Source: an uncultured Solirubrobacterales bacterium (GTDB lineage: Bacteria > Actinomycetota > Thermoleophilia > Solirubrobacterales > 70-9). From it: a DNA stretch of 64,000 nt. The stretch spans positions 164,092 through 228,091 of the forward strand of contig CAWCIS010000006.1 in assembly GCA_963795625.1 (NCBI GenBank). The letters are read 5' to 3'. Shown here one piece after another: positions 113 through 23,451 of this stretch (positions within the stretch are counted from its first letter, which is position 1; the number at the start of each line of letters is the position of its first letter). Under the pieces are notes generated by a model. It made no database searches, had not been told where the DNA came from, and saw only the letters and a program-made list of their open reading frames with translations. The position numbers and the translations under genes were made by a program.

Positions 113-141
113 TTGATCGCTCAGCAAAAGCTGCCTATGAC
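113..141 (+). promoter_or_regulatory. putative sigma70-like promoter of secreted paralog 1 (TTGATC - 17 nt - TATGAC)
   Basis: TTGATC at 113-118 and TATGAC at 136-141. The same hexamers and spacing recur at the same distance upstream of all seven paralogs. The conserved ~55-nt leader ends in AAGGAG. Confidence 0.4.
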
Positions 142-196
142 TCTCAGGACCGCTCGGCCACAGGGGTCGGGCGACTACTACAAGGAGCGAGATCGA

Positions 197-916
197 ATGA
201 TCCGCAATCTCAAAGTCCTGTTGGCGGCCGCGATGGCGCTGGCAGCCTTCGGCGCCGTCAGCGCCGGCGCCGCTCACGCGGCAGAAGAATTCCACTGTCA
301 GGCGGGGGTGACTCCATGCACAATCACAGCGTCCCAGGATGGCGCCGCTGGTTCGGTGACAGGGTCGCAGGTATTCATCCCTAAAAACAAAGCAGGAGAA
401 ACCGCTTCCTTCAAATGTGGGACGGTGTCAGGAGGCGCGACATCGACCACCGTCACGACCCCAGAACTCACAGTCGGCGCAGCCGGCCTATTGGCATACG
501 GCAGCTGCAAAGTCAACGGCAGCTCTGAAGTCAAAGTCCGGATGAACGAATGCCATTACCTGTTTACAGCGCTCAATGGCGAAACGGTCGCAGGCTCGAT
601 AGTTCACGTCCTGTGCAAAACCGCGAAACACATCGAAATCGAAGTCCCCGAAACCGGCTGCGTATTTGAAGTGACACCGCAGACACTGACGGGGGTTCAT
701 TACCACAACATCGGCACCAAAGGAACCTCCTCGACAGAAACGACAGTCGAAGTAAGCACCAGCATCCCCACCGTCGAGGTCGGCAAAGTGGGTACGGGCT
801 GTCTTCCTAAAGCAGTTGTGGGAGAAACCCTCACTGCCGAATACAAAGGCAACGCGCTCGCCACAGCAGAGAAAGACAACGCCAGCAAAGAAATGGTCGA
901 AGGCTGGTGGGCATAG
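197..916 (+). CDS. Cys-rich secreted protein, paralog 1 of 7 (unknown family)
   Basis: ORF 113..916 trimmed to the ATG at 197, preceded by AAGGAG. Signal peptide MIRNLKVLLAAAMALAAFGAVSAGAAHA. Eight conserved Cys. Invariant C-terminus MVEGWWA. Confidence 0.85.
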   Translation: MIRNLKVLLAAAMALAAFGAVSAGAAHAAEEFHCQAGVTPCTITASQDGAAGSVTGSQVFIPKNKAGETASFKCGTVSGGATSTTVTTPELTVGAAGLLAYGSCKVNGSSEVKVRMNECHYLFTALNGETVAGSIVHVLCKTAKHIEIEVPETGCVFEVTPQTLTGVHYHNIGTKGTSSTETTVEVSTSIPTVEVGKVGTGCLPKAVVGETLTAEYKGNALATAEKDNASKEMVEGWWA

Positions 917-1116: not shown

Positions 1117-4100
1117 GTGAAGAGCAAAATCAGCTCGGTGGGCTTGGCCTCTGTGTCGATAGCGCTTTTTTCTGTCGCCATAGCGTTTCTACTGGGAGTT
1201 TCTACCTCCGCAGTGGCCGAAATCGCACCCTTCTGTACTCCGGGAATCCAGGGGGGTAAATGCGAAGACCCACATGGGATAGCGGTTGACACCGAAACCG
1301 GCCGCGTTTACGTAGCCGACTCGGGCAACAACCGCGTTGATGTCTTCCGATCGGACGGCATCTTCCTTTTCACCTTCGGCTGGGGGGTAAAAACCGGCGC
1401 CAACGAACTTCAGACCTGCACCACGGGATGTCAAGCTGGGATTGCCGGCGCGGGCCTTGGTCAGTTCTCCTCGCCGAGCTGGATCGCGGTGGACAACGAT
1501 GCCGCCAGCTCATCCCGGCATGACGTCTACGTCGGCACCGATAACTTCCGCGTCCAGAAGTTCGATCCGAACGGCGAACTCGTCAAAGCTTTCGGTACTG
1601 AAGGCCACGTCGGCAAACAGGGAACCGGCGCCTGCGAATTCGCAAGGGAAAAGGATCCCATCGCCGTGGGCTCGGGTGGCAATGTCTACGTTGCCGACAG
1701 CTTCGATAAAGACGGTCCGGGAAGCGGCCACGTCTTCGTCAGTCGGATCATCGTCTTCAGCTCCAGCTCCTCGGGCGCTTGCTCCGAAATTGAATTACCG
1801 AATATTGAAGGGGACTTCAAGACGATCCAAGCCCTCGCCGTTGATTCGACCGGCCATATCTATGTAACGGTCGAAGCGGACGGCAGGGGCATCCGCAAAT
1901 ACAGCCCCTCTGGAGTACTAGAAAAAGAACTCGATGTCGCGACCGAAACGACGGAAGGTCTTTTTACCCCGAGCTTGTCGATCGATACCGCTGACAATCT
2001 ATTTGCCGAGCAGCTGGCAGAAAGACTGCTCGAAGGCGAAACCGTTGACTTCTTCACCGAGTACTCGCCAGCGGGGGTAAGGCTCAAACACTTCGGCTAT
2101 CTGATCCACCCTGGAGGCCTTGTAGTTCCCGCCCTCGCCGCATACCACAGTCCCAGCGGCGATCTCTACGCCAATGAGGGATCACAGGAAATCAAGTATC
2201 TGCAGCTACCCCCCCCGGGCCCGGTCATAGCCTCGGTGGCGTGCAAGGTGAAAGCAGAAACCCTCGGCAGCAGTAAGGCGACCTTGCAGGCCCGGGTCGA
2301 TCCGGAGGGGAAACAGACGACCTTCCGATTCGAATACGTAACGCAGGATCAGTTCGAACTGAACGAATGGGACCAAGCCGAAATCACCGATCCCTCCACG
2401 CTGCCTGCGGAAGTCGAACTGGAGGAAGCGACGATCGAAGTCAAAGGCCTGAAACCGGAAACCAAATACCATTGCCGGGTTGTCGCCGAAAACGTCGACA
2501 GCGCTACCCCGGTACATGGCGAAGAAGGCACCTTCACGACTCTGGAAGGATTTGAATTTGGCCCCGCCTGGAGCGGGAACGTAGGGGAAACCTCGGCGAC
2601 CATCTTTGTCGATGGCAATCCGCTGGAAACCCCGGCGACGGGCCAGATCGAATACGTCGAAGACGCCAAGTACCAGCCGGACCACTCCTTCGCCGAAGCC
2701 CAGAGCGCGCCGGCGCCGGAACTGGATTTCGGAAACGGCAACACGATGAAGTTGGTGCAGGTGACGCTGAGCGGCCTGAAGCCCGGCACCCTCTATCATT
2801 ACCGCTTGCGGGCTCGTAACGGGACGCCGCCGGAGGGGTTGATCTGCCCCGAACGTAAACCGGCCTGCCCCGAGCTCGAGCACACCTTCAGGACCTACTC
2901 AGTTGGTGCTGCCGGAGCCGGCGAAGCGGACCATCGCCGCTATGAGCTCGTCTCGCCGGGGGAAAAGAACAGCGCCGAAGTGGGGGTATTCGGGCCCGCT
3001 GCGGGCTTCTTCGAGGACCGCGCGATGCGGATCGTGGCGTCGGCGGGCTCCGGCGAAGCGGTCACCTACACTTCTTGGACCTCGTTCGGGCAGGCCGAAG
3101 GGTCTTTCGCGGCCAGCCAGTACCTCTCAAAGCGGACCGAAGGCGGCTGGGTGACCGCAAATACTTCACCCTTCGGCTTCGTCGCCAACGTCCTCGACCC
3201 GCCATATCTGGGCTTCACGCCCGACCTGGGCTACGGAGCGTTCAAAACGACCGAACCGCCGCTGACCGGGGACTGCCGCAAAGGCTCCGAAGACATGTAC
3301 CTGCGCGACAACGAGACGGGGGCCCTGCGTTGCCTCTCGCCGGAAATCTCCGGTGGGCCCAATGCAGCCTGCCTGGTTTTCGCCGGCGCGAGGGAAGACG
3401 GCGGCCGCGTATTCGTGGCCGGCAGACCCGAAGGCGGAGAGTCCTACACCTACAGCCTGTACGAATCGACGCCGAGCGGGATCCAGTTGATCAGCGTGCT
3501 GCCCAGCGGAGAACCGGCGCCGGCGACCCCTGGAACCTCCTTTGGTCCGTCGAGGAGTTCTAGCGGCCCCGAAAACTGCCAGGTCTCGCGCACGCGCCTG
3601 AGCTCGGCGATCTCCAGCGACGGCTCGAAGGTATTCTGGACCTATGTGCCGGAAGCTAGCGTGAGGGTCACCCCGACCGCACCGGGCACTCAGAAAGTGA
3701 CCGTCGCCGGGGCGACCGAAGGCGACTTCACCCTCAGCTTCCAGGATAAAACGACGGCACCGATCGCCCTCAAAGCAAGCGCCGGAGTGCTGCAGGCGGC
3801 GCTCGAATCGCTGTCGACGATCGGGGCCGGCAACGTGGAAGTGTCCGGCTCCGGGCCCTATGTCGTCACCTTCAAGGGAGCGCTGAGCGGCACCGAAGTC
3901 CAACTCAGCTCCAACGCCGGCAACCTTCGGGCTGAACTCACGCAGCTGCTGGTACGCGTCGACAACAGCAAAACCAACCAGCTCGATGCGCCACCACCAC
4001 CGCCTGCAGATCAGAAAAATGTAGGAAAAGGTCCGGCTGGCGGCGGCGTCTTCTGGGCCGCTGCCGCCGACGGCTCCGTCGCCTATTTCACGGCCACCGG

Positions 4101-5256
4101 CAGGCTCACCTCCTCCTCCAAAGCTGCTGCGGGAGAACCGGATCTCTACCGTTATGAACTCGGCAACGCCGAAGAACCGCTAACCGACATCACCAAAGGC
4201 TCGGTTCCGGGCAACGTGCAAGGAGTGGTCGGAGCCTCTGAAGACGGCTCTTATGTCTACTTCGTCGCCAAAGCGGCGCTGACGGGCGAAGCAACGAACG
4301 GCGCCGGGCTAAAAGCCGAAAAAGGCGGTGAGAACCTCTACCTCTACCACGAAGGCCAACTGACGTTTATCGCCACCCTTGCCGCCCCTGAAAACGGCTT
4401 AGGCCGAGACGAAAGCAACTGGTCATCGGAACTGCGGCGCCTAAGCGCCCGCGTCTCCGCCGACGGCAGGCACCTGGCCTTCCTCTCGATCGAAGCGCAG
4501 AAACTGGCGGGCTATGAGAACACCCGCGCCTCAGGCAAACCCTGCGAATACTCCCTGAACGAGAACAGCGCAGAATTCATCGGCAGCTCCCTCTGCTCGC
4601 AGGCCTTCCTCTATGACGCCGACAGCGGCAAGCTGACCTGCGCCTCCTGCAACCCCTCGGGAGCGCGGCCGAAGGGCCCGACGATCTTCCCCAACTGGAG
4701 CAACGGCTTCGAAGGCCCGCGCTACCTCTCCAACAACGGCAAGCGCTTGCTCTTCGTCTCCTTCGACTCGCTGCTGCCGACGGATATCAGCGCAAAGGGG
4801 GACGTCTATGAGTTCGAGCTGCCGGGGGAGGGGACCTGCAGCGAGGCCGCCCCGGCCTTCGACCCGGTCTCCGGGGGCTGCCACCTCCTCGTCTCCAGTG
4901 GCAAAAGCAGCGACGAAAGCTTCCTGATCGATGCGTCAAGCGACGGCCACGACATCTTCTTCTCGACCCGCGACAAATTGGTCGGCTGGGACGTGAACGA
5001 AAACTTCGACATCTACGACTACCGCGAAGGAGGCGGGTTCGCGGAACCGGTGGCAGCATCGGTATGCGGCGGGGAAGCGGGCTGCGTGCCGCCGGCGAGC
5101 CCGCCGCCCGCAGCCTCCGCTCCGGCCACTCCCGGTTTCAGCGGGCCGGGCAACGCGAAGCCGAAGAAGCAAAAGCCCAAGAAGAAGAAGCACAAGCAGG
5201 CCAAGCACAAGAAGAAGGCAAAGCACGCCGGCAAGCAGCGGAGGGCGGGTCGATGA
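1117..5256 (+). CDS. giant exported NHL / FN3-like / PD40 (TolB-like) beta-propeller repeat protein with Lys-rich C-terminal tail
   Basis: GTG at 1117 preceded by GGAGGGGGG. Hydrophobic signal/anchor SVGLASVSIALFSVAIAFLLGVSTSAVA. NHL-like motif GRVYVADSGNNRVDVF. FN3-like modules (TFRFEYV..YHCRVVAEN; YHYRLRARN). PD40-like repeats SSDGSKVFWT, AADGSVAYFT, SEDGSYVYFV, SADGRHLAFLS, SNNGKRLLFVS, SSDGHDIFFST. Tail KPKKQKPKKKKHKQAKHKKKAKH. Confidence 0.85.
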   Translation: MKSKISSVGLASVSIALFSVAIAFLLGVSTSAVAEIAPFCTPGIQGGKCEDPHGIAVDTETGRVYVADSGNNRVDVFRSDGIFLFTFGWGVKTGANELQTCTTGCQAGIAGAGLGQFSSPSWIAVDNDAASSSRHDVYVGTDNFRVQKFDPNGELVKAFGTEGHVGKQGTGACEFAREKDPIAVGSGGNVYVADSFDKDGPGSGHVFVSRIIVFSSSSSGACSEIELPNIEGDFKTIQALAVDSTGHIYVTVEADGRGIRKYSPSGVLEKELDVATETTEGLFTPSLSIDTADNLFAEQLAERLLEGETVDFFTEYSPAGVRLKHFGYLIHPGGLVVPALAAYHSPSGDLYANEGSQEIKYLQLPPPGPVIASVACKVKAETLGSSKATLQARVDPEGKQTTFRFEYVTQDQFELNEWDQAEITDPSTLPAEVELEEATIEVKGLKPETKYHCRVVAENVDSATPVHGEEGTFTTLEGFEFGPAWSGNVGETSATIFVDGNPLETPATGQIEYVEDAKYQPDHSFAEAQSAPAPELDFGNGNTMKLVQVTLSGLKPGTLYHYRLRARNGTPPEGLICPERKPACPELEHTFRTYSVGAAGAGEADHRRYELVSPGEKNSAEVGVFGPAAGFFEDRAMRIVASAGSGEAVTYTSWTSFGQAEGSFAASQYLSKRTEGGWVTANTSPFGFVANVLDPPYLGFTPDLGYGAFKTTEPPLTGDCRKGSEDMYLRDNETGALRCLSPEISGGPNAACLVFAGAREDGGRVFVAGRPEGGESYTYSLYESTPSGIQLISVLPSGEPAPATPGTSFGPSRSSSGPENCQVSRTRLSSAISSDGSKVFWTYVPEASVRVTPTAPGTQKVTVAGATEGDFTLSFQDKTTAPIALKASAGVLQAALESLSTIGAGNVEVSGSGPYVVTFKGALSGTEVQLSSNAGNLRAELTQLLVRVDNSKTNQLDAPPPPPADQKNVGKGPAGGGVFWAAAADGSVAYFTATGRLTSSSKAAAGEPDLYRYELGNAEEPLTDITKGSVPGNVQGVVGASEDGSYVYFVAKAALTGEATNGAGLKAEKGGENLYLYHEGQLTFIATLAAPENGLGRDESNWSSELRRLSARVSADGRHLAFLSIEAQKLAGYENTRASGKPCEYSLNENSAEFIGSSLCSQAFLYDADSGKLTCASCNPSGARPKGPTIFPNWSNGFEGPRYLSNNGKRLLFVSFDSLLPTDISAKGDVYEFELPGEGTCSEAAPAFDPVSGGCHLLVSSGKSSDESFLIDASSDGHDIFFSTRDKLVGWDVNENFDIYDYREGGGFAEPVAASVCGGEAGCVPPASPPPAASAPATPGFSGPGNAKPKKQKPKKKKHKQAKHKKKAKHAGKQRRAGR

Positions 5257-8745: not shown

Positions 8746-9492
8746 ATGATCCGCAATCTCAAGGTCCTGCTGCTCAGCGCAATGGCGCTGGCAGCCTTCG
8801 GCGCCGTCAGCGCCGGCGCCGCTCACGCGGCAGAAGAATTCCACTGTCAGGCGGGGGTGACTCCCTGCACAATCACAGCGTCTCAGGATGGCGCCGCCGG
8901 CTCAGCGACAGGTGGGCAGGTGTTCATTGTCAAAAACAACCAACCTAAACCAGAAACCGGTTCCTTCAAATGTGGGACGGTGTCAGGAGGCGCGACATCG
9001 ACCACCGTCACGACCCCAGAACTCACAGTCGGCGCAGCCGGCCTATTGGCATACGGCAGCTGCAAAGTCAACGGCAGCTCTGAAGTCAAAGTCCGGATGA
9101 ACGAATGCCATTATCTGTTTACAGCCCTCAATGGCGGAACGACCGCAGGCGCGATAGTCCACGTCCTGTGCAAAACCGAAAAACACATCGAAATCGAAAT
9201 CCTCGAAACCGGCTGCATATTCGAAGTGACACCGCAGACACTGACGGGGGTTCATTACCACAACATCGGCACCAAAGGAACCTCTTCGACAGAAACGACA
9301 GTCGAAGTAAAAATCCCCAACTCCCCCCCCACCTCCCCAGGTATCACCGTCGAGGTCAAAGCAGTGGGTACCGGATGCCTTCCCAAAGCAGCCGTGGGAG
9401 AAACCCTCACCGCCGAATACAACGGCAACGCGCTGGCTACAGCAGAGAAAGACAACACCAATAAAGAAATGGTCGAAGGCTGGTGGGCATAG
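8746..9492 (+). CDS. Cys-rich secreted protein, paralog 2
   Basis: ORF 8623..9492 trimmed to MIRNLKVLLLSAMALAAFGAVSAGAAHA. Carries an insertion KIPNSPPTSPGI in the variable patch. Ends MVEGWWA. Confidence 0.85.
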   Translation: MIRNLKVLLLSAMALAAFGAVSAGAAHAAEEFHCQAGVTPCTITASQDGAAGSATGGQVFIVKNNQPKPETGSFKCGTVSGGATSTTVTTPELTVGAAGLLAYGSCKVNGSSEVKVRMNECHYLFTALNGGTTAGAIVHVLCKTEKHIEIEILETGCIFEVTPQTLTGVHYHNIGTKGTSSTETTVEVKIPNSPPTSPGITVEVKAVGTGCLPKAAVGETLTAEYNGNALATAEKDNTNKEMVEGWWA

Positions 9493-9544
9493 TCATCAGT
9501 CGACTACATCCCGATTGCTGCAGCTAGCGATCAGGACGTGACGA

Positions 9545-9652
9545 GCCGGCACGGACCAAGAAGATAGGCGTGGTCCGTGCCGGCTACTCAACGGGGAGCG
9601 CGCTGGACCGATTTCTGCCTGTCTCTATTCGGCGGACGCGCCGAACAGAGAC
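9545..9652 (+). terminator. conserved double-hairpin intergenic module (copy 1)
   Basis: Hairpin 1 at 9545-9584: GCCGGCACGGACCA / TGGTCCGTGCCGGC. Hairpin 2 at 9621-9652: GTCTCTATTCGGCG-GACG-CGCCGAACAGAGAC. Confidence 0.45.
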
Positions 9653-9724
9653 ACGGCCTTTGCAGGGGAGACGCCGGCTTGCCGGGACTGCCTCGTCAGA
9701 CGGCGTCACTCATCGAGTCCCAGC

Positions 9725-9753
9725 TTGATCGCTCAGCAAAAGCTGCCTATGAC
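9725..9753 (+). promoter_or_regulatory. putative promoter of paralog 3
   Basis: Same motif as 113..141. Confidence 0.4.
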
Positions 9754-9809
9754 TCTCAGGACCGCGCGGCCAGAAGGGGCCGGGCGACTACTACAAGGAG
9801 CGAGATCGA

Positions 9810-10529
9810 ATGATCCGCAATCTCAAAGTCCTGTTGGCGGCCGCGATGGCGCTGGCAGCCTTCGGCGCCGTCAGCGCCGGCGCCGCTCACGCGGCAGAAG
9901 AATTCCACTGTCAGGCGGGGGTGACTCCATGCACAATCACAGCGTCCCAGGATGGCGCCGCTGGTTCGGTGACAGGGTCGCAGGTATTCATCCCTAAAAA
10001 CAAAGCAGGAGAAACCGCTTCCTTCAAATGTGGGACGGTGTCAGGAGGCGCGACATCGGCCACCGTCACAACCCCAGAACTCACAGTCGGCGCAGCCGGG
10101 GCGCTGGCTTACGGCAGCTGCAAAATCAACGGCAGCTCTGAAGTCAAAGTCCGGATGAACGAATGCCATTACCTGTTTACAGCCCTCAATGGCGGAACGA
10201 CCGCAGGCGCGATAGTCCACGTCCTGTGCAAAACCGCGAAACACATTGAAATCGAAACCCCCGAAGACGGCTGCATATTCGAAGTGACACCGCAGACACT
10301 GACGGGGGTTCATTACCACAACATCGGCACCAAAGGAACCTCTTCGACAGAAACGACAGTCGAAATAAACGCCACCGGTATCAGCGTGGAGACCTCCCAT
10401 GTGGGTACCGGGTGTATTCCCAGAGCAGCCGTGGGAGAAACCCTCACCGCTACCTACAACGGCAACGCGCTCGCCACAGCAGAGAAAGACAACACCAATA
10501 AAGAAATGGTCGAAGGCTGGTGGGCATAG
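9810..10529 (+). CDS. Cys-rich secreted protein, paralog 3
   Basis: ORF-track ORF. The signal peptide and first ~80 codons are identical to paralog 1. Ends MVEGWWA. Confidence 0.88.
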   Translation: MIRNLKVLLAAAMALAAFGAVSAGAAHAAEEFHCQAGVTPCTITASQDGAAGSVTGSQVFIPKNKAGETASFKCGTVSGGATSATVTTPELTVGAAGALAYGSCKINGSSEVKVRMNECHYLFTALNGGTTAGAIVHVLCKTAKHIEIETPEDGCIFEVTPQTLTGVHYHNIGTKGTSSTETTVEINATGISVETSHVGTGCIPRAAVGETLTATYNGNALATAEKDNTNKEMVEGWWA

Positions 10530-10581
10530 TCATCAGTCGACTACATCCCGATTGCTGCAGCTAGCGATCAGGACGTGACGA

Positions 10582-12907: not shown

Positions 12908-13630
12908 ATGATCCGCAATCTCAAAGTCCTGCTTGCCGCCGCGATGGCGCTGGCAGCCTTCGGCGTCGTGAACGCCGGCGCCGCTCACGCGGCAGGGGAG
13001 CTATTCCACTGTCAGGCGGGGGTGGCTCCCTGCACAATTACAGCGTCCCAGGACGGCGCAGCCGGCACGGCGGCAGGGGCGCAGGTGTTCGTCCCCAAAA
13101 ACAAAGCAGGAGAAACCGGCTCCTTCAAATGCGGGACGGTGGAAGGAGGCGCGACATCGACCACCGTCACAACCCCAGAACTCACATTCGGCGCAGCCGG
13201 CCTACTGGCTTACGGCAGCTGCAAAGTCAACGGCAGCTCTGAAGTCAAAGTCCGGATGAACGGCTGTCACTATCTGTTTACAGCCGCGAACGGCGGAACG
13301 GTCGCAGGTGCGATAATACATGTTCTGTGTACGACCGCAAAACATGTCGAAATCGAAATCCCGGAAACCGGTTGCATATTCGAAGTGACACCGCAAACAC
13401 TGACGGGAGCTCACTACCACAACATCGGTACCTCGGGGACCAGCTCGACAGAAGTAACAGTCGAAGTACAAGTTAGCGGTGTCGTCGTCGAGGTCAAGGC
13501 AGTAGGTATTGGATGCATACCCAGAGCAGCTGTGGGAGACACCCTCACCGCCACCTACAACGGCAATCTGCTCTTTACAGCAGAGAAAGACAACACTAAC
13601 AAAGAGATGGTCGAATTCTGGTGGGCATAA
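12908..13630 (+). CDS. Cys-rich secreted protein, paralog 6
   Basis: ORF 12647..13630 trimmed to MIRNLKVLLAAAMALAAFGVVNAGAAHA. Ends MVEFWWA. Confidence 0.85.
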   Translation: MIRNLKVLLAAAMALAAFGVVNAGAAHAAGELFHCQAGVAPCTITASQDGAAGTAAGAQVFVPKNKAGETGSFKCGTVEGGATSTTVTTPELTFGAAGLLAYGSCKVNGSSEVKVRMNGCHYLFTAANGGTVAGAIIHVLCTTAKHVEIEIPETGCIFEVTPQTLTGAHYHNIGTSGTSSTEVTVEVQVSGVVVEVKAVGIGCIPRAAVGDTLTATYNGNLLFTAEKDNTNKEMVEFWWA

Positions 13631-13679
13631 TCCTAAGTTGACAAGAACCCAACGGGAGGGTACGACGACCGTTTTTTGC

Positions 13680-13715
13680 GTATCTCTATTCGGCGCGCGC
13701 GCCGAATAGAGATAC
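13680..13715 (+). terminator. single palindromic hairpin (variant of hairpin 2)
   Basis: GTATCTCTATTCGGCGCG / CGCGCCGAATAGAGATAC is a 36-nt perfect palindrome. Hairpin 1 is absent in this spacer, and a T6 run precedes the palindrome. Confidence 0.4.
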
Positions 13716-13787
13716 GGCCCTTTGCAGGGCCGAAGCCGGTTCGTCTGGAACCGCTCAAGCAGGCGCGAGGACCCAGCGGACCCCGGC

Positions 13788-13816
13788 TTGATCGCTCAGC
13801 GAGAGCTGCCTATGAA
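13788..13816 (+). promoter_or_regulatory. putative promoter of paralog 7 (TTGATC-17-TATGAA)
   Basis: Same architecture as the other copies, with a more diverged leader. Confidence 0.35.
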
Positions 13817-13870
13817 TTGTGGGAATGCTCGACCACAGGGCCGGGCGACTACGACAAGGAGCGAGATCGA

Positions 13871-14584
13871 ATGATCCGCAATCTCAAAGTCCTGCTGCTC
13901 AGCGCGATGGCGCTGGCGGCCTTCGGCGCGCTCAGCGCCGGCGCCGCTCACGCGGCAGAAGAATTCCACTGTCAGGTAGGGGTGGCACCCTGCACATGGA
14001 CAGGTTCCCAGGATGGTGCAGCGGGTTCAGTAACAGGCGGGCAGGTGCTCGTCATCAAAAACGCCGCAGGAGAAATCGCCTCCTTCAAATGCGGCACGGT
14101 GTCCGGAGGCGCGACATCGACCACCGTCACAACCCCGGAACTCACATTCGGCGCAGCTGGGGCGCTGGCTTACGGCAGCTGTAAAGTCAACGGCAGCTCT
14201 CAGGTCACTGTCCGGATGAACGGCTGTCACTACCTGTTTACAGCCGCAAACGGCAAAACGGAAGCAGGCGCGACAGTTCACATCCTGTGTGCAACCGAAA
14301 AACACATCGAAAGAGAAATTCCAGAAACCGGCTGCATACTAGAAACAACACCGCAGACATTGACCGGAGCTCACTACCACAACATCGGCGCCGGAGCTAC
14401 GACAGAAACGACAGTCGAAGTGAAAGTCAGCGGTGTCGTCGTCGAGGTCAAGGCAGTGGGCAGCGGGTGTCTTCTCCCTGTGAAAGTGGGAGAAACTCTC
14501 ACCGCCACGTACAACGGCAACATGATCATCACAGCAGAGAAAGACAACAGCAACAAAGAAATGGTCGAAGCCTGGTGGGCATAG
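13871..14584 (+). CDS. Cys-rich secreted protein, paralog 7 (most divergent)
   Basis: ORF 13676..14584 trimmed to MIRNLKVLLLSAMALAAFGALSAGAAHA. Ends MVEAWWA. Confidence 0.85.
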   Translation: MIRNLKVLLLSAMALAAFGALSAGAAHAAEEFHCQVGVAPCTWTGSQDGAAGSVTGGQVLVIKNAAGEIASFKCGTVSGGATSTTVTTPELTFGAAGALAYGSCKVNGSSQVTVRMNGCHYLFTAANGKTEAGATVHILCATEKHIEREIPETGCILETTPQTLTGAHYHNIGAGATTETTVEVKVSGVVVEVKAVGSGCLLPVKVGETLTATYNGNMIITAEKDNSNKEMVEAWWA

Positions 14585-14831: not shown

Positions 14832-15675
14832 ATGAAGTTGAACCGCTATGTCGGCCTTCTCTTGGCGGTCGCCGGTTTGATCACCGCTTTCGCGGCGCTC
14901 AGCCCGGTGGCCCAGGCCGCGAAACCTAATCCCGGCTACACGCAGTTTGCCGGCTGTCCCAATCTGTATACAGAAAATCCGAACAGCCTCACCTGTCTCC
15001 GCTCCGAAATCAAGAGCGGCAAATTCAAGATGGGGAACAAAGAAGTTCCGATCGAACATCCGATCGTCTTGACGGGCGGGGTCCAAAAACTCTTCTCGCC
15101 GACGCCGGTCTACTTCAACTCCGAAGGCGGACTGACGAAAGTCAAACAGAAAGTCCCCGGCGGCATCATCGGCCTCACCGGATTGACCTGGCTGGCTGAA
15201 TTCCTCGGCATCGAAGCGTTGACGCTGTACGCAACGACCGAATTGGCTGGCACTCCGATCGTTGCCGGCACCGCGTTCGCGCAGCTCGCCGATCAAAGTG
15301 CACCTGGAGAACACGACCGGCGTTCTGGGCAAAAGCTGCTACGTCGGGTCGAACTCGGCTCCGATCGTCCTCAACCTGACGACCGGTACGACCAGCCCGC
15401 CGCCGCCCAACAAACCGATTTCAGGGAAAGAACCGTTCCTTGAATTCGAACCGATTCTGGAAATCCAGAAGGCGAAAAACGGCACCTACGTGGACAACTC
15501 GTTCGCGGCTCCCGGTGCCAACGGCTGCGTCCTGACGCTGTTCGGCTTCATCCCGATCAGCATCAACGGCCTGGTCAACACTCAGTCGGGCCTGCCGTCT
15601 CCGGCTGGGACCAACGAAACGGTGCAGAATTTCGACGCAGAACTCGCTGCGGGCGAACTGGTGTACACCGAATAG
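14832..15675 (+). pseudogene. exported protein of a second small family, interrupted by a +1 frame break (or sequencing error)
   Basis: ORF 14832..15443 has signal peptide MKLNRYVGLLLAVAGLITAFAALSPVAQA and looks protein-like until ~15290, then becomes Arg-rich nonsense. ORF 15262..15675 (frame +1) continues protein-like (IKVHLENTTGVLGKSCYVGS..). Frame +1 is closed upstream by a TGA at 15220-15222. Confidence 0.6.
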
Positions 15676-15709: not shown

Positions 15710-15743
15710 GGCGCGTGGCGGGTTTCCCGCCACGCGCCTTTTT
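15710..15743 (+). terminator. canonical intrinsic terminator
   Basis: 13-bp stem GGCGCGTGGCGGG / CCCGCCACGCGCC with loop TTT, followed by TTTTT. Confidence 0.75.
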
Positions 15744-15823: not shown

Positions 15824-18076
15824 TTGAGGGGTCGGTTTCTACTTACGCTCGGCGTTTTCGCCATGGCTGCTTGTTGCCTGGCTGCGCTGGCCGGTGCAGC
15901 GATGCCGCAGGTGGACGAGACTTGGGTCGAAGCAGTTGCCACCGACACCGCCGATCTTCATGCGCGGGTCGATAGTGGCGGTCTCGCTAGCACCTACCGC
16001 TTTGACTACATCGCCGAATCCGCTTACCTGGCGAATCTGGAGGCGGGCAGGGAAGGGTTCTTCGGGGCAGCGAGTATTCCCCAGCCGGAAGGCAACCCGG
16101 GCAAAGGCGCCGACAGTCCCGTCACGCAGTCGCTTACCGGCCTGCAGAAGGAAACGAGATATCGCTATCGGGTAGCGATACGCAACGCAGACGGGACCGC
16201 GGCAGGTCCGGAGCGGGTGTTCACGACCAAAGGCGCGGAAGGGCCGCTGGCCCTGCTCGACGGTCGCGGCTGGGAGATGGTCTCCCCAGTCGACAAAAAC
16301 GGCGGTGAGGTCCAAGCGCCCGGGACTGGCGGGAGCGGTGGCGTCTTCCAGGCCGCGTCCCAAGGCGGGGCGGTGACGTTCAGCTCCGTCGCTTCGTTCG
16401 GTGCCGACGCCGGCGGCGCCCCGGCGGGCAGCCAGTACGTCGCGCGCCGCGGACCCGGCGGCTGGGGGACCGAAAACGTGACCGCGCCGCTCGCCGCCGC
16501 CGGCTTCGGCGAAGAACCGGTCGGGGTCCCGTACCAGCTGTTCTCTGCCGGGCTTTCGCTCGGTCTGCTGGCGGCGCCCGACTATCCGCCGCTGCCGGGG
16601 ACCCCAGCACCGCCGGGCTATGGCAACTACTACTTGCGGGATGCCGCCGGCGCCTACTCAGCGCTCCTCACCTATGGCGACATCGCTCGCCTGACGGTGC
16701 CACCGCAGGACTTCGAGCTGAGCTTCGCCGGCGCTTCCACGGATCTCTCGCACATCGTGCTCTCGAGCTGCGCGGCCTTGACTGAAAACGCGACCGAAGT
16801 GCCGGGCTCCGGCACGGGCTGCGATCCGAAAGCGCCCAACCTCTATGTGCGCTCGGCAGCTGGCTGGCGATTGCTGAACCTGCTGCCGGGCGATTCCATC
16901 GGCACGCCGCCGGGCCGACTGGCCGCCCCCGCGGGCGCGGTCTCGGCCGACGGCTCGCGCGTCTTCTGGACCGACGGGTCCGACCTCTATCTCAACCAGG
17001 AAGGCGCCGGCTCGGTCCAGGTCGACGGTGCCGTCGGCGGCGGTGGGACCTTCCAGACCGCCGCGGCCGACGGCTCGGTCGTCTACTTCACCAAGGGCGG
17101 CAGCCTTTACCGCTACGACGTCGCCGGAGAAGCGACCGCGGACCTGACTCCCGGTGGCGGCGTGATCGGGGTACTGGGCGCCTCCGCCGACGGCTCGGCG
17201 GGGTACTACGCCACCACCGCCGGGGTCTTCCTCAACCGGGCCGGCGTCACCACCGGCCCGTTCGCCTCCGCCGTCGACCCCTCGAGCTTCCCGCCGAGTA
17301 CCGGGACCGCCCGAGTCAGCGCCGACGGCAACAGCCTCGCCTTCCTCTCTTCGGCCGAACTCACCCCGTACGACAACACCGAAACCACCACCAGCGGGCC
17401 CGGCAAACCCGTCTCCGAGGTCTATCTCTACGACGCCGGCGCAAACAAGCTCACCTGCGTCTCCTGCAACCCCACCGGGGAACGCCCGAAGGGGCCCTCG
17501 ACGATCCCTGGCGCGATCGCCAACGGCCCGGGCGAAGGCGCCACCCGTGCCTACAAGCCGCGGGCGCTCAGCGCCGACGGCGACCGCCTCTTCTTCGACA
17601 CCCGCGACGCGCTGGTCCCCAGGGCCGACACGAACGGGGAACCTGACGTCTACGAGTGGGAGGCAGACGGCAGCGGCACCTGCGCTCGAGCCGCCGGATG
17701 CCTGCAGCTGATCTCCTCCGGCAGCGGTCGCCCCGCCTCCTTCGTCGATGCCAGCGCGAACGGCGAGGACGTCTTCTTCCTCACCGCCAACTCGCTGGTC
17801 GGGACCGATCCTGGCTCGGTCGACCTCTACGACGCCCGCGAAGGCGGCGGCTTCGCCGAACCGCCGCCCCCGTTCATCTGCGAAGAGGACGCCTGCCAGC
17901 CGCTGCCGCCGCCCCCCGACGACCCCACTCCTGGCACCCTCGTGCCGACCGGCGGCAACCCGCCGGTTCACTTCCCGAAGGCCCACAAGACGAAGCCTCG
18001 GCACAAGCGCAAGCACCGGGCCCAGCGCCGGCAACGAAGTGGGCGCCACCACAGCAGGCCGGAGGGGAGACGATGA
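15824..18076 (+). CDS. exported FN3-like / PD40 beta-propeller protein with Arg/Lys/His-rich tail (shorter paralog of 1117..5256)
   Basis: Signal peptide MRGRFLLTLGVFAMAACCLAALAGAA. FN3-like TYRFDYI..RYRYRVAIRN. PD40-like SADGSRVFWT, AADGSVVYFT, SADGSAGYYA, SADGNSLAFLS, SADGDRLFFDT, SANGEDVFFLT. The C-terminal block YDAREGGGFAEPPPP..C..C is shared with the first giant protein. Tail KAHKTKPRHKRKHRAQRRQR. Confidence 0.85.
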   Translation: MRGRFLLTLGVFAMAACCLAALAGAAMPQVDETWVEAVATDTADLHARVDSGGLASTYRFDYIAESAYLANLEAGREGFFGAASIPQPEGNPGKGADSPVTQSLTGLQKETRYRYRVAIRNADGTAAGPERVFTTKGAEGPLALLDGRGWEMVSPVDKNGGEVQAPGTGGSGGVFQAASQGGAVTFSSVASFGADAGGAPAGSQYVARRGPGGWGTENVTAPLAAAGFGEEPVGVPYQLFSAGLSLGLLAAPDYPPLPGTPAPPGYGNYYLRDAAGAYSALLTYGDIARLTVPPQDFELSFAGASTDLSHIVLSSCAALTENATEVPGSGTGCDPKAPNLYVRSAAGWRLLNLLPGDSIGTPPGRLAAPAGAVSADGSRVFWTDGSDLYLNQEGAGSVQVDGAVGGGGTFQTAAADGSVVYFTKGGSLYRYDVAGEATADLTPGGGVIGVLGASADGSAGYYATTAGVFLNRAGVTTGPFASAVDPSSFPPSTGTARVSADGNSLAFLSSAELTPYDNTETTTSGPGKPVSEVYLYDAGANKLTCVSCNPTGERPKGPSTIPGAIANGPGEGATRAYKPRALSADGDRLFFDTRDALVPRADTNGEPDVYEWEADGSGTCARAAGCLQLISSGSGRPASFVDASANGEDVFFLTANSLVGTDPGSVDLYDAREGGGFAEPPPPFICEEDACQPLPPPPDDPTPGTLVPTGGNPPVHFPKAHKTKPRHKRKHRAQRRQRSGRHHSRPEGRR

Positions 18077-21000: not shown

Positions 21001-21270
21001 CCGCTGCGCGGCAACGGCATCGCGATCGACCTGGTCGGCCGGATCGACTCCCACCACGGGGGTCTGCGCGCCACCTTCGACGTGGTCCCGGACGCGCCGG
21101 TGACGAAGTTCGGGCTGACGATGAGGGGCGGCAAGCGCTCGCTCCTCGTCGTCGCCGAAGACGTCTGCGCGCATCCGCAGCGGGAGACGGCCCTGTTCCT
21201 CGGCCACGACAACGCCGGCTCGGTGGCGCATCCGCCGCTGCAGGCGGAGTGCGGGAGGGGGAAGGGATGA
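18073..21270 (+). CDS. ~1065-aa exported partner protein (paralog of 5253..8525)
   Basis: ATG at 18073 overlaps the upstream stop (ATGA). Signal peptide MRRSRAVALSLAPLAALLLLAPIAMAAA. N-terminal FN3-like TSYRFEYV..AYRYRLTAEN. Colinear with 5253..8525. Confidence 0.85.
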   Translation: MRRSRAVALSLAPLAALLLLAPIAMAAAPSVTTSSATNVQGISALLRGKVDPGGAVTSYRFEYVDQASFEADQPNGFAHAIRTPDAPLEGSGERDVSATVTGLARDTAYRYRLTAENAGGTATGLPQPFTTFHGFGFRSGDGFDVAITQEGGITPELHAGSHPHAITTTINFNLAGESAEHPGVPVSDGDARDLELEMPPGLIENPSAVSKCSQDEFHTSRVSQFEASRSGENCQPLSQIGVVEIRSSAGGGSIRSFGIFNLEPPPGFPAQIGFSPYGVPVAFTPHIRELGGEFGTTLDLHNLTQKFDVYGLTLTIWGTPWTIDHNGQRGECLNEAEPDIPFGKCPVEQGIRPHLPFSYLTLPASCGAPLRFGIAATSWQQPGAVTASALSRDSSGTPAGLTECPRLLFEPRTTTQATNPRASAPSGFDFSLTPAEEALTNPNRRVPSQARRAVVTLPEGMTVNPSLAAGLGSCSPAGYAAESATSPPGAGCPENAKIGTFTVQSQLFEETVKGAIYLAEPDDPATAAPGAENPFDSLLALYLVAKIPARGVVVKVAGKLTPDPGSGRLTAVFDDLPQLPYSNLKMHFREGQRAPLVTPSACGSFATQVDLTPWNAPGVTAHSAPSFTVAKGLGPGGACPDGSLPPFAPGSVAGSFGGAAGSYSPFLLHLTRADSEQELTSYSATLPPGLTGKIAGIPFCPDAAIAAAKAKTGREEERHPSCPAASEIGHTVSGYGAGAVLAYAPGKLYLAGPYRGSTFSVVAIDSATVGPFDLGVVVVRSAIRVDRRTAQVSIDSSNSDPIPHILSGVPIHLRDVRVYIDRPETTLNPTSCDPSSVVSVLTGAGAGFADPGDDSTARVPSRFQVSGCSDLGFAPRFGLHLKGATRRGSYPSLSVDLRPRRGDANIGRAVVTLPPGLFLAQGHIETVCTRRQFDAEHCPPGAVYGQATAVTPLLASPLRGPVYLRSSDNTLPDLVIPLRGNGIAIDLVGRIDSHHGGLRATFDVVPDAPVTKFGLTMRGGKRSLLVVAEDVCAHPQRETALFLGHDNAGSVAHPPLQAECGRGKG

Positions 21271-23451
21271 GGTTGGGGCGGCTCGTCACCTTGTTGGCGC
21301 TGCTGGCCGTCGCGAGCGCGGCGACGGCTGCCCGCGCCGACGCGGCGCTGCCCAACCACGACCTCGAAAAAATCGAAATAACCGCGGGCCGGGGAGGCGC
21401 GCCGCTGAAAGATGCCTGTGGGGTCGCGATCGACCCCGTCGGTTCCCGCGGCCGCGTCTTCGTCGCCAACTACTACGAACACGTCGTCTATGTCTTCCTG
21501 CCCAAAGGGAGCGAAGGATTCGAATTCGAACAGGCGCTCGAAATCCCCCAGGCGCCGGTCCCGCCGAGCGGCAAACCGGTCAGCGGGCCCTGCGACCTCG
21601 CGATCGACTCCAAAGGCAACCTCTACGTCAACCGCTGGCATTACGACGTCCTCAAGTATCCGCGCCTGGGTACGAGCTCACCCTCTTTCGGACCTCCGAC
21701 GGTTCTGGATCCGAACGGATCGACCAGCGTCACCGCCGACGCCGCCGACCATGTGTACGTCGACGATCGCACCTACGTGGCCGAGTACGAATCCTCGGGA
21801 GCGCCTGTCCTCGACGGCGACGGCGAACCGCTGCGGATCGGCCTCGGGAGCCTCGACAGCGGTTATGGAGTCGCCGTCTCGGATTTCCCCGGGGCCCTCG
21901 GTTTTCCCTCTACCGCGGGATGGGTGTATGTGGCTGATGCGGCCGACAACACGGTGAAGGTCTTCGACCCGGCCAAAGGCCCGTCCGCACCGCCTGAAGT
22001 GATCGACGGCGGGGGAACGCCGCAGCTCGGCTTCAGCTCCCTGCGCGACGCCGACCTCGCCGTCGACCCCGCCGACGGCCATCTCTACGTGGTCGACAAC
22101 CTGCAGCCCTTCTTCGTGGAACCCGAAGCCGTGGTCGATGAGTTCAGCTCGCTCGGCCACTTCCGCGGCACGGTGCCCACGGACTCGGCCAGCGGCCACC
22201 CGACCAAAGTCGTCGATGCAGAACCCAGCGCGGTCGCGATCGACTCCGGCAAGCTCTACCTGACCAGCGGCAACTACTTCGTCGACGGCGACGAACCGGC
22301 ACACAGCCGCTCGCGAGTTCTGATCTTCGGTCCGGGGGAGCACTTCGAAACCGGGATCCTCAAGGTCGTCAAGACGGGCAGCGGCACCGGCACCGTTTTC
22401 AGCAACAGCCCGGGTGGTCTCGGCTGCGGCACTGTCTGCGAAGGCGAATTCACCCAGGGGATAACGGTCAGCCTCACCGCTGTGCCCGCCCCCCACAGCC
22501 GCTTCGTCGAGCTGGACCAATTGCAAACCGCAGGCCGCACTGCCATCGCGCTGCAGCCTGGGAATGACCGCGGCCCCCGAAGAAGTCGGCGCCGAGTTCG
22601 AAGCGATCCCGCAGCTGCCGTTGACCGTGACCCGCTCGGGCAGTGGCAGCGGCACCGTGTTCAGCACCCCAACCGGGCTCGAATGTGGCGGTGGCTGCGA
22701 AGCCTCCTTCGACGAAGGCTCGACCGTGACCCTGTCGGCCGAACCCGCCGCGGGCAGCGCCCTCGCCGGCTGGGTGGGCTGCGAAGCCGAAACCGCCGCG
22801 GGCGCCTGTGTCGTCGAGATGGATGCCGCGCGCTCGGTCAGCGCCCGCTTCGACCCCCTCCCCGAAGTGAGCCCACCGCCTCCCCCGCCACGCCCACCGC
22901 ACACCCTCGCCGTCTCCGTGGTCGGGACCGGTTCCGCGGGCGGCACCGTGGTCAGCGAGCCGGTCGGCATCGAGTGCGGCGCCAACTGCGCCCGGCAGTA
23001 TGCCGACGGCACCGTGCTCACCCTGCGCGCCAACCCCGCCTCCGGCTCCAAGCTGCTCGGCTGGGGTGGATGCGACAACTCCAGCGGCAACGCCTGCACG
23101 GTCGCGCTGGGCGGCGACAAGACGGTCGTCGCCGCCTTCGGGCCGGGCTTGCGCGGCGCCCTGCGGGCGCGCAAGCTGCTCGCCCGGGGAGCCACCGGCA
23201 CCCTGCGCGTCTCGGTGCCGGCCGCGGGGGCCCTCACCGTCAGCAGCAAGGGGGTGCAGCCAAGCAAACAACTGCCGCTGCGCGCCGGCGAGACGACTGT
23301 CCCGATCCGGCTCGACGGGGCCGGCCGCCGCTCCCTGCGCAAGGCCCGTGGCGGCAAGCTGAAGCGCACCCTTGCCCTGGCCTTCACTCCCTTCGACGGC
23401 GGCGACACCATCCGCGCCACCGCGGCGGCCACCTTCGAGCTCGGCCGCTAG
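21267..23451 (+). pseudogene. exported NHL-repeat protein with three InlB-B-repeat-like modules, interrupted by a +1 frame break near 22512 (or sequencing error)
   Basis: ATG at 21267 overlaps the upstream stop (ATGA). Signal peptide MRLGRLVTLLALLAVASAATAARA. NHL-like GRVFVANYYEHVVYVF, GWVYVADAADNTVKVFD, GHLYVVDN. The repeat GSG.GTV.S.P.G..CG..C...F..G..V.L.A.P..GS...GW.GC....C.V occurs three times. The first repeat reads ..HSRFVE in frame 0 and continues WTNCKPQAALPSRCSLGM.. in frame +1 (ORF 22564..23451). Confidence 0.65.

Follow-up and report, generated by a model that had tools for sequence, protein, structure and literature searches.

Several described surface systems resemble the gene cluster analyzed here, each in some of its parts. 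S-layer families with variable paralogs exist, for example sap of Campylobacter fetus, and S-layer genes are typically monocistronic and carry a structured 5' leader. Cysteines are mostly absent from S-layer and pilin proteins, and the combination of small size and eight cysteines is unusual for S-layer proteins. The exosporium of Bacillus combines a nap of the collagen-like protein BclA with a basal layer of the cysteine-rich proteins ExsY/CotY. Finally, fibrillar adhesins are defined by the presence of a stalk, an adhesive domain and an anchor (PMC8286594). The CLIPPER/DUF11 domain was described as a stalk domain of such adhesins, and some DUF11 domains do not form a Lys-Asn isopeptide bond (bioRxiv 10.1101/2025.04.25.650565).

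The block studied here covers positions 113-23451 of the window, i.e., the whole analyzed stretch of 64,000 nt from an uncultured Solirubrobacterales bacterium (GCA_963795625.1, contig CAWCIS010000006.1, positions 164,092-228,091), and constitutes a real, conserved and apparently undescribed gene cluster of soil Solirubrobacterales. All 13 genes lie on the plus strand, none of them has a rival on the opposite strand, and they encode seven S paralogs, the giants G1 and G2, the partners P1 and P2, one X and one N (Table 1). Position 113, which the first-pass annotation had taken as the start, is no start codon; the TTG at this place belongs to a promoter-like -35 box. The annotation's claim that every gene begins with a signal peptide was borne out, as exactly one hydrophobic segment is present in each product (13/13), which is N-terminal and followed by an AxA-type site; none of the 13 products has a C-terminal membrane segment or hydrophobic window. 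The absence of sortase/LPXTG, usher, secretion ATPase, transporter and regulator from the block, which had been noted as well, also holds: Pfam and NCBIfam searches revealed no sortase, usher, chaperone, prepilin peptidase, secretion ATPase, transporter or regulator within it, and a regular expression search of the block proteins revealed no L[PA]xT[GANS] near any C-terminus. Furthermore, no toxin/immunity domain, SLH, LysM, CWB2 or enzyme signature was found in the block, the thioester motif CxEQ is absent from every block protein, and a sortase was found neither among the 20 flank ORFs scanned with Pfam nor in related loci. In both X and N a single extra base breaks the reading frame, in X at ~15288 (frames 14832-15443 and 15262-15675) and in N at ~22512, whereas the orthologs of both are intact (the N ortholog in locus L001 has 732 aa). 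Should these frameshifts be genuine mutations rather than errors of the assembly, the copy present here may be partly non-functional.

Table 1. Coordinates of the genes and regulatory elements of the block within the window.
Feature	Position	Strand	Description
Promoter-like element + leader	113-196	+	TTGATC-17 nt-TATGAC, then ~55-nt leader with hairpin and AAGGAG, upstream of A1
S paralog A1	197-916	+	239 aa, signal peptide MIRNLKVLL..., 8 Cys, C-terminal WWA
Giant G1	1117-5256	+	1379 aa from GTG 1117; ORF opens at 1012
Partner P1	5253-8525	+	1090 aa
Tandem S array A2-A7	8746-14584	+	own promoter-like element per gene; spacers 98-100% identical
S paralog A2	8746-9492	+	
S paralog A3	9810-10529	+	
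S paralog A4	10846-11565	+	
S paralog A5	11882-12601	+	
S paralog A6	12908-13630	+	
S paralog A7	13871-14584	+	
X	14832-15675	+	~280 aa, exported
Intrinsic terminator, canonical	15710-15738	+	13-bp stem then T run, 3' of X
Giant G2	15824-18076	+	750 aa
Partner P2	18073-21270	+	1065 aa
N	21267-23451	+	NHL propeller then InlB-B-repeat (Flg_new_2) domains

The order S-G1-P1-S(n)-X-G2-P2-N(-Z) on a single strand recurs in a Solirubrobacterales MAG and in further contigs. The system is hence conserved, its families being found together and in this order in other genomes as well; the neighbourhood comparison had been proposed with the first-pass annotation. The cluster order is seen in 15 of the 17 soil-metagenome loci of at least 5 kb, and the remaining two stop just 3' of S. 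The same MAG carries at least five S-G-P modules plus S arrays, and G-P pairs are repeated in tandem in other genomes. In many related loci the gene of a collagen-like protein lies immediately 5' of the cysteine-rich S gene(s); none is found inside the window, which begins at the A1 promoter, so that an upstream copy is possible. The pairs G1/P1, G2/P2 and P2/N are connected by ATGA stop/start overlaps, and the same 4-nt overlaps are present in the loci L001, L011, L012, L055, L056 and L059. The block might be no system at all, expanded paralog families of unrelated exported proteins having come to lie side by side by chance. This is contradicted by the synteny, as gene order and strand are kept between genomes with S proteins merely ~41% identical, and also by the conserved stop/start overlaps and by a codon signature that the cluster families share and that is absent from the flanks, making this explanation extremely improbable.

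The codon signature also bears on the origin of the block. The GC3 value of the S genes is 0.61-0.65 compared to 0.90-0.97 in most genes of the 25-42 kb flank (0.79 in the lowest), in line with the earlier observation that the small genes are richer in A/T-ending codons. However, the accessory origin that had been deduced from it is not supported: the A-ending bias recurs in the orthologous clusters of genomes at this level of S divergence, the flanking genes RibD_C, DUF2855 and lactonase are syntenic with cluster-bearing genomes, and plasmid and phage sequences gave no match to the cluster. Since other genomes share the bias, with the cluster at a syntenic position of the chromosome, it is not a sign of recent acquisition and is a conserved property of the system.

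Each S gene is a unit of its own, with a promoter-like element and two hairpins, a conserved one in the leader and one after the stop codon. The promoter-like element is found before all seven S copies, with identical copies of the element upstream of A1 at 8662, 9725, 10762, 11798, 12824 and 13788, each 84 nt 5' of the S start codon; its -10 box (TATGAC/TATGGA) does not end in the usual T and is missed by a strict consensus scan. The leader hairpin is 85% paired and shows covariation, 7 of 8 pairs being changed on both sides between genomes. Two 20-nt arms of 90% complementarity form the hairpin 3' of the S stop codon (9539-9590 and its copies), the core of which is a perfect 13-nt arm starting at 9545, 10582, 11618 and 12654, and the S spacers contain a second inverted repeat of 14 bp starting at 9621, 10658, 11693 and 12729.

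As described in the first-pass annotation, S comprises seven paralogous, cysteine-rich proteins of ~240 aa; they have a length of 237-248 aa, are 77-89% identical among themselves and contain 8 Cys each, which are kept across the S family. No match was found in Pfam, NCBIfam or PDB for S and X and none in PHROGs for S, P and X, and the confident structure model of S matched no solved fold, including S-layer proteins and pilins. The Pfam searches that had been suggested thus place neither S nor X in a characterized family, and no confident homology of the small paralogs and partners to a family of known function emerged. According to the model, S apparently adopts a new all-beta fold with four probable disulfides. 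The probable surface fibre or coat would be built largely from families without known relatives. X is the most conserved family of the system, is usually single-copy and has invariant His, Cys and Asp residues.

The S proteins might form a two-dimensional S-layer-type lattice or sheath over the cell, with G, P, X and N as anchoring or accessory proteins and without any fibre. The monocistronic S genes with their structured 5' leader would suit such a lattice, as would the composition of the mature protein, which is acidic (pI 5.2-5.5) and Thr-rich (13-15%), and the size of the S family in soil metagenomes (3084 representatives). Moreover, the S paralogs look exchangeable by gene conversion, as in S-layer variation systems: their variation is mosaic with 60-100% identity per 60-nt window, beside the nearly identical spacers. 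However, no SLH, CWB2 or other anchoring domain was found, and just one of 40 S-family members showed a match, to SbsC_C with an E of 0.12, i.e., at chance level. The mature S protein is small (~210 aa) and has 8 Cys, and its model resembles no solved S-layer protein. Natural proteins with 2-4 tandem S domains behind a single signal peptide suit a linear polymer at least equally well, and we regard the lattice as distinctly unlikely.

The same tandem arrays of diversified, small, cysteine-rich secreted proteins and the many system copies per genome could also be expected if S were a set of secreted toxins or bacteriocins of a polymorphic competition system, G and P mediating delivery or receptor binding. 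A polymorphic toxin variant had been considered in the first-pass annotation, but no toxin, immunity, secretion-ATPase or transporter gene is present in or beside any module, the C-termini of G and P are conserved polybasic tails, and the empty PHROGs search speaks against it as well. The variation of S is spread along the whole protein with a conserved C-terminus and no concentration in a C-terminal toxin cassette, and dN/dS among the S paralogs is below 1 (0.29-0.61). Toxins are therefore very unlikely.

The giants and partners can in part be assigned to known folds. G1 is composed of an NHL propeller (PF01436, 49.8 bits, Pfam cutoff 20), two FN3-like domains (fn3 is recognized by Pfam too), an ~85-aa domain that also occurs on proteins of phage tails and capsids, a C-terminal part resembling PD40 and a polybasic tail, and a promoter-like site is located 5' of its gene at 1021-1050. 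The PD40 label (PF07676) given earlier to both giants stands weakly for this part of G1 (24.1 bits, cutoff 20.9) and falls for G2, which reaches just 9.3 bits and stays below every Pfam threshold. G2 aligns to residues ~380-1370 of G1 with 29-37% identity, and the N-terminal NHL part is absent from it. In N, Pfam recognizes Flg_new_2 (E 2e-11), and in its intact ortholog also NHL (34.2 bits); the NHL repeats of the G1 N-terminus and of N have sequence matches in the PDB including TRIM71 and PknD (1rwi).

P1 and P2 are 41% identical over 934 aa, and P has 16 invariant Cys. P1 starts with a CLIPPER/DUF11-like domain (PF01345, residues 50-163), which at 17.9 bits is below the cutoff of 24.6; a series of Ig-like beta-sandwich domains and a polybasic tail come next. 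In P2, the N-terminal position is taken by an FN3-like instead of a CLIPPER-like domain. Some P homologs are annotated as TIGR01451 or PF01345, and a phmmer search against the PDB showed no sequence-level homology of P to solved structures. The structure model (pLDDT 77) is a chain of beta-sandwiches, for which Foldseek returned the Ig-like domains of PrgB (8beg; E 1e-12, probability 1.0), four entries of antigen I/II C123 (3qe5, 7l0o, 6e3f, 4tsh; probability 1.0) and the CLIPPER domain 9ifr of CnaA-like fold (probability 1.0, TMt 0.71, rmsd 4.2 over 151 columns). Judged by this model, P is a long string of Ig-like domains such as make up the stalks of Gram-positive fibrillar adhesins, which gives substance to the fibre or adhesin suggested in the first-pass annotation. 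Two other assignments of P were rejected: an alpha-2-macroglobulin/thioester protein, as A2M and C3 gave Foldseek TM values of at most 0.10 and CxEQ is missing, and a chaperone-usher component, as the match to SafDAA is a generic Ig-fold match and usher/chaperone Pfam hits were not obtained. Measured against the definition of fibrillar adhesins, P has a signal peptide and a tandem Ig-like stalk and no known adhesive Pfam domain, and in place of a known surface anchor just the polybasic tail; the propellers of the paired G could serve as adhesive domain. In 39 P homologs, the last 20 residues contain a median of 8 K/R, compared to 7.9% K/R protein-wide, the tail of P2 in this window being weak (3 K/R), and the G tails contain 14-17 K/R per 30 residues (17 in the last 30 aa of G1).

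Without a recognized anchor, all these products might be released as soluble binders for the capture or sensing of polymers or nutrients, the propellers and Ig-like domains acting as binding modules without any assembly on the cell. Proteins secreted by soil bacteria often carry NHL, PD40 and FN3 modules, and near-invariant polar residues of S (H33, D48, H57, Y101, Y121, N219, E225) could form a binding site. However, H33 and H57 are missing in distant S-family members, none of the loci examined has a linked gene for an enzyme, transporter or sensor, and the polybasic tails, the adhesin-type stalk fold and the translational coupling favour an assembled structure, so that released binders appear unlikely.

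As an overall view, conserved order and uncharacterized S and X families agree with the undescribed extracellular or cell-surface system postulated earlier, and the best explanation, with about even chances, is that this block represents the core chromosomal copy of an envelope system with many components that is specific to the Solirubrobacterales (class Thermoleophilia) and most likely forms an adhesin-like fibre or coat. In such a fibre or coat, matched production of G and P would give a long scaffold with a propeller head and an Ig stalk. Since no recognized wall-anchoring module (LPXTG, SLH, LysM, CWB2) is present, we infer surface retention from the basic tails, which may hold G and P non-covalently on the anionic Gram-positive wall and replace sortase and LPXTG. 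Gene organization and natural tandem fusions suggest S as the abundant building block that polymerizes on the G-P scaffold or decorates it, and an invariant base or assembly factor may consist of X plus G2-P2-N, joined in other genomes by Z. The multiple S paralogs and S-G-P modules, shuffled by gene conversion, might vary the exposed surface, which could serve ligand range or the evasion of phages and predators. In its most specific form this would be a new appendage that needs no sortase, usher or known secretion/assembly machine, in which disulfide-locked S of new fold (with an invariant MIRNLK-type signal peptide) sits on a tail-held heterodimer of propeller and Ig stalk, X is an assembly or cross-linking factor and gene conversion is programmed variation; we put this forward tentatively, as a possibility that is on balance doubtful. 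If true, an abundant soil lineage would use gene conversion of paralogous modules for programmed surface variation.

Compared to the known systems, the block shares with S-layer families an abundant-looking acidic candidate subunit with structured 5' leader and several paralogs homogenized and shuffled by recombination, and S differs from them by the lack of an anchoring domain, its Cys-richness and its mature size. Because every S copy has its own promoter, it is not a silent-cassette system, in contrast to sap of Campylobacter fetus. With the exosporium, many related loci have in common a collagen-like gene beside the cysteine-rich S gene(s), yet the S system is Sec-exported and not assembled by a mother cell, and there is no sequence similarity. 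Sortase and chaperone-usher pilus operons follow a similar logic, in that a small, hairpin-ended major-subunit gene, separate and apparently strongly expressed, precedes large accessory genes and subunit paralogs occur; the block differs by the absence of sortase, usher, chaperone, prepilin peptidase and pilin motif, the S fold is no pilin, and the host is presumably monoderm. NHL repeats connect the G1 N-terminus and N with NHL ectodomains such as the sensor domain of M. tuberculosis PknD and TRIM-NHL proteins, but the cluster proteins have no kinase or transmembrane part and fuse the repeats to FN3 and PD40-like modules and a basic tail. Finally, with the fibrillar adhesins (antigen I/II SpaP/SspB C123, Enterococcus PrgB) P shares the signal peptide and the long Ig-like chain, whereas it differs in having no LPXTG/sortase and no known adhesive tip domain, in its many disulfides and a polybasic tail at the place of the sorting signal, and in being always translationally coupled with a beta-propeller giant, with S genes alongside.

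All credible genes in the block at 113-23451 (n = 13) lie on the plus strand of a window with a GC content of about 0.70, and every product starts with one hydrophobic stretch at its N-terminus and, behind it, a cleavage-type site rich in Ala, bearing out the claim of the first-pass annotation that all 13 genes encode exported proteins; a second membrane segment was found in none of them. The block comprises seven small paralogs (S; A1 to A7), two giants (G1 and G2), their partners (P1 and P2), an exported protein X and a protein N. The TTG at position 113, which had been taken as a gene start, belongs to a promoter-like -35 box, and the first S gene has its start codon at 197. Scans with Pfam, NCBIfam and motifs revealed no sortase, LPXTG, usher, ATPase, transporter or regulator in the block, as had been claimed. 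S, X, P, G2 and Z, a further gene following N in other genomes, had zero matches above threshold in Pfam, NCBIfam and PHROGs, and nothing in the window was picked up by Rfam or tRNA scans. Tat export was rejected because an RR is found only in P1 and P2 of this window and is absent from the family consensus, a lipoprotein reading because the lipobox Cys is absent, and a thioester/A2M reading because no block protein contains CxEQ. Likewise, a prophage reading was rejected, as the phage-family matches consist only of one decoration-type G1 domain and of Gly-X-Y repeats.

Coordinates of the block genes, of further window genes and of collagen-like genes at related loci (L001, L012, L057) in other genomes or metagenomes
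Feature	Position	Strand	Description
A1	197-916	+	S paralog
A2-A7	between 8746 and 14584	+	S paralogs
G1	1117-5256	+	giant
P1	5253-8525	+	partner
X	14832-15675	+	split by one extra base at ~15288
G2	15824-18076	+	giant
P2	18073-21270	+	partner
N	21267-23451	+	split by one extra base at ~22512
HATPase_c_3 protein	42801-44525		in restriction-modification-like island
Z1-domain protein	45513-48464		in restriction-modification-like island
C-5 cytosine methylase	49888-50967	-
C-5 cytosine methylase	51455-52720	-
Collagen-like gene	L001 374-1201
Collagen-like gene	L012 5170-6030
Collagen-like gene	L057 5093-5896
Collagen-like genes	several metagenome loci

The single extra bases in X and N are the sole two frameshifts in the block, and intact orthologs exist elsewhere (X, 282 aa; N, 732 aa), the frameshifts being either real mutations or assembly errors. 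Both extra bases sit 1-3 nt past AGCT (CAGCTCgCCGATC and GTCGAGcTGGACC). Given the two m5C methylases of the window, systematic miscalling of a base at a methylated motif is conceivable, as are real pseudogenes. The methylases belong to a restriction-modification-like island at 42801-52720, in parts of which the GC content is lower.

The S paralogs share 77-89% identity and eight Cys residues. No match to Pfam, NCBIfam, PHROG or PDB sequences was obtained for S, even by scanning all 40 aligned members. When 1.84 billion representatives were searched with a profile, 3084 S relatives (representatives at 50% identity) were retrieved, 1314 of them at E <=1e-10. Among the 3084 are natural proteins in which one signal peptide precedes two to four S domains in tandem. 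AlphaFold predicts an all-beta structure with high confidence (pLDDT 87, pTM 0.80), including two strands of 16-17 residues, for which Foldseek retrieved no significant match from PDB and BFVD (best E 0.02-0.04, TM <=0.31); matches to beta-barrels, galectins and glucanases were rejected as weak and noise-level. The checks proposed for a small paralog thus led to neither a characterised family nor a solved fold, and judged against PDB and BFVD the modelled S domain is a candidate new fold. The S signal peptide MIRNLKVLLAAAMALAAFGA, encoded at 197-280, shows 85% identity among members with mature parts of 41% identity, a result partly favored by the collection of homologs, and MIRNLK... is retained in very distant members (P0243, P0252 and locus L046). 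It recalls motif-bearing signal peptides of the YSIRK type; YSIRK-like motif-bearing signal peptides direct site-specific secretion. Mature S is acidic (pI 5.2-5.5), contains 13-15% Thr and ends in WW[AE]. In hhalign comparisons, S showed homology to neither P nor X beyond the signal peptides. An S-layer-type lattice is improbable as an explanation of the cluster, S being devoid of an S-layer anchoring domain.

The giants had been described as PD40/FN3 proteins. This applies to G1, weakly as regards PD40, for which protein Pfam reports NHL (49.8 bits) and fn3 together with FN3-like domains and, when the C-terminal third is scanned alone, PD40 (24.1 bits; cutoff 20.9), and it does not hold for G2, which stays below every Pfam threshold and is alignable to residues ~380-1370 of G1. 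Within G1, a domain of ~85 aa (FTLSFQDKTTAPIA...VVTFKGALSG; window ~3615-3900; residues 834-931 of the 1379-aa protein, 869-966 from the ORF start at 1012) matches phage tail-tip cage and major capsid proteins in PDB (9d93, 9d9w) as well as the PHROG major-tail and tail-sheath families, and looks like a decoration-type module that phages have as well.

P1 and P2, with 41% identity along 934 aa, belong to a family that has 16 invariant Cys residues and more than 578 clusters of ~1090-aa homologs, all of these homologs being annotated as "hypothetical" or TIGR01451. P1 gave no match to PDB sequences, and its Pfam score for CLIPPER/DUF11 is under threshold. In the P model (pLDDT 77), beta-sandwich domains follow one another in a chain. 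Its best Foldseek matches are PrgB of Enterococcus, in the Ig-like stalk (E 1e-12, probability 1.0), antigen I/II C123 (four structures, probability 1.0) and 9ifr, a CLIPPER domain (TMt 0.71); multi-Ig proteins of a generic kind are also among the matches, i.e., integrin alpha and, at very low TM, A2M/C3. CLIPPER is the new name of DUF11 and is a stalk domain of fibrillar adhesins (bioRxiv 10.1101/2025.04.25.650565). The checks suggested for a partner therefore gave no Pfam match above threshold and a model of an Ig-type stalk chain. N contains InlB-B-repeat (Flg_new_2) domains and its ortholog NHL repeats (Pfam). Both G and P carry polybasic C-terminal tails, with a median of 8 K/R among the last 20 residues of P in 39 homologs compared to 7.9% overall, and 17 (G1) and 14 (G2) K/R among the last 30 residues. 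These basic tails would tether a G-P scaffold to the anionic wall. The alternative, release of the products as binding proteins, is unlikely, though it deserves slightly more weight than an S-layer-type lattice, and tethering at the surface is the preferred reading.

X is the most conserved component of the cluster and has 2656 relatives (clusters at 90% identity), the best 120 of which are 63-100% identical to the query. Its invariant residues include H157, C169, D221, C232 and N249, and the motif FAAPGANGCVLTLFGFIPISINGLVN is strongly conserved (alignment A6). Profile comparison to Pfam and PDB sequences gave no match. Of all components of the cluster, X is the likeliest candidate enzyme or assembly factor.

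The architecture of the cluster recurs in other genomes. The Solirubrobacterales MAG MFD02360.bin.2.153 shows the order small-G1-P1-small-X-G2-P2-N-Z on a single strand, with identities to the window of 41% for S, 51% for G1, 63% for P1, 66-80% for X, 72% for G2, 79% for P2 and 58-66% for N, and two further long contigs have the same gene order. Moreover, soil and rhizosphere metagenomes yielded 42 S loci, 17 of them of at least 5 kb; G and/or P adjoin S on the same strand in 15 of these 17, and the remaining two end directly after S. The proposed test of gene-neighbourhood conservation thus revealed co-occurrence of the S, G and P families in the same order in other genomes. We conclude that the genes of the block form one system; the view that there is no system at all fits poorly. 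The MAG contains at least five S-G-P modules and S-only arrays, and other genomes have tandem G-P-G-P or five S genes ahead of G-P. A collagen-like gene with Gly-X-Y repeats, an N-terminal membrane anchor and a GC3 of 0.56-0.67 is often located directly 5' of S or G-P modules. On one of the two further long contigs (L058, 12008-16844), an IS21-type transposase/IstB and group II intron reverse-transcriptase fragments lie between X and G2 and split the core cluster.

The window begins at the promoter-like element of A1, and its flank genes RibD_C, DUF2855 and lactonase also adjoin modules in other genomes. As the flanks are common to other genomes and tblastn against plasmid and phage collections gave no match, the cluster is a vertically inherited chromosomal feature of Solirubrobacterales. 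The A/T-rich codon ends noticed earlier in the small genes are real: S genes have a GC3 of 0.61-0.65, G1 of 0.74 and P1, G2, P2 and N of 0.82-0.89, most flank genes lying at 0.90-0.97. It is A-ending codons in particular that are favored: AAA makes up 95% of Lys codons in S genes and 13% in flank genes, GAA 86% and 10% of Glu codons, ACA 40% and 0% and ACT 3% and 1% of Thr codons. This preference spans the whole system, graded S > X > G1 > P/G2/N (1-23451 compared to 24000-42000), with a GAA share of 70-81% in G and P. Across the window and four related loci (L001, L012, L055, L056), GAA accounts for 48-88% of Glu codons in the cluster and 8-15% in the flanks, AAA and ACA being extreme in S. 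Three other genomes show the same A-ending signature, which is absent from their flanks; the bias is therefore a conserved trait of the system and no sign of recent transfer. Recent horizontal acquisition was rejected on the retained signature and the conserved gene order, and the accessory origin that codon use had suggested was dropped, also in view of the common flanks and the lack of plasmid or phage matches. Our best guess is that the bias is due to selection linked to high expression.

All seven S genes are preceded by an identical TTGATC-17 nt-TATGAC, 84 nt 5' of the ATG, followed by a hairpin leader and AAGGAG. A strict sigma-70 scan did not call these elements, which are therefore termed promoter-like. 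Over 34 S genes taken from different contigs, pairing of the leader structure reaches 78% compared to 29-49% with slid pairing partners, and 7 of the 8 pairs of the inner hairpin are altered on both sides. In many genomes (window 113-196 and copies, L001-L051) a promoter-proximal GGATTGAC is complementary to GTCAATCC, located between Shine-Dalgarno sequence and AUG, and this pairing shows compensatory and G-U changes, e.g., GGATAGCC/GCCTATTC and GGATTGC/GCAATCC, with 65-77% pairing in the outer helices. It could be a leader stem occluding the ribosome site in a putative transcript, or a split operator. A hairpin with a perfect 13-bp core follows each array gene. Between it and the next promoter-like element, each array spacer contains a 14-bp inverted repeat, GTCTCTATTCGGCG-GACG-CGCCGAATAGAGAC (9621-9652, 10658-10689, 11693-11724, 12729-12760), perfect in two of the four spacers and with one mismatch in the other two, as a candidate operator or second terminator.

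A canonical terminator is located 3' of X, G1 has its own promoter-like site, and ATGA overlaps join G1/P1, G2/P2 and P2/N, likewise in orthologs. These signals, together with the elements and hairpins of the individual S genes, suggest monocistronic S genes and the units G1-P1, X and G2-P2-N, a layout expected for an abundant subunit and scaffold proteins in matched amounts. Within 60-nt windows, paralog identity swings between 60% and 100%, and the spacers behind A2, A3 and A4 match each other at 98-100% despite a coding dS of 0.12-0.47, a pattern typical of ongoing gene conversion in which coding diversity is kept. The dN/dS of S is 0.29-0.61.

As a summary, we rate the cluster as a probable locus for a surface fibre or adhesin, made up largely of families that lack characterisation. 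In the mechanism that we consider most likely, G and P would form an elongated surface scaffold with a propeller head on an Ig stalk, and S would be an abundant and variable subunit that either polymerises on this scaffold or coats it. X with G2-P2-N, and Z elsewhere, would act as invariant base or assembly factor, and extra S-G-P modules and gene conversion would vary the exposed surface. Solirubrobacterales are abundant, little-cultured soil Actinomycetota, and their cell envelope has, to our knowledge, hardly been characterised. The cluster and its extra modules occupy tens of kilobases per genome and consist mainly of large protein families without annotation, the S domain being a candidate new fold. 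If it encodes a surface fibre or coat, this structure would determine how the cells meet soil particles, roots, phages and predators. It would also show that Gram-positive surface structures can be built and anchored by a further route, independent of sortase, and would give several thousand "hypothetical proteins" names and a testable function.

No system of this kind described in Solirubrobacterales or Conexibacter was found in the literature searched, which, with the conserved co-occurrence and the lack of a known family for S and X, upholds the initial reading as an undescribed surface system; there is a real chance that it represents a new kind of assembly. The toxin variant of that reading is unlikely: a toxin system fits poorly, and membership tests placed the cluster outside the polymorphic toxins, as well as outside chaperone-usher pili and thioester proteins. 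It differs from sortase-anchored proteins in having neither LPXTG nor sortase and from S-layer proteins in having no anchoring domain. Among known systems, the cluster would work most like the fibrillar adhesin or pilus loci of Gram-positive bacteria.
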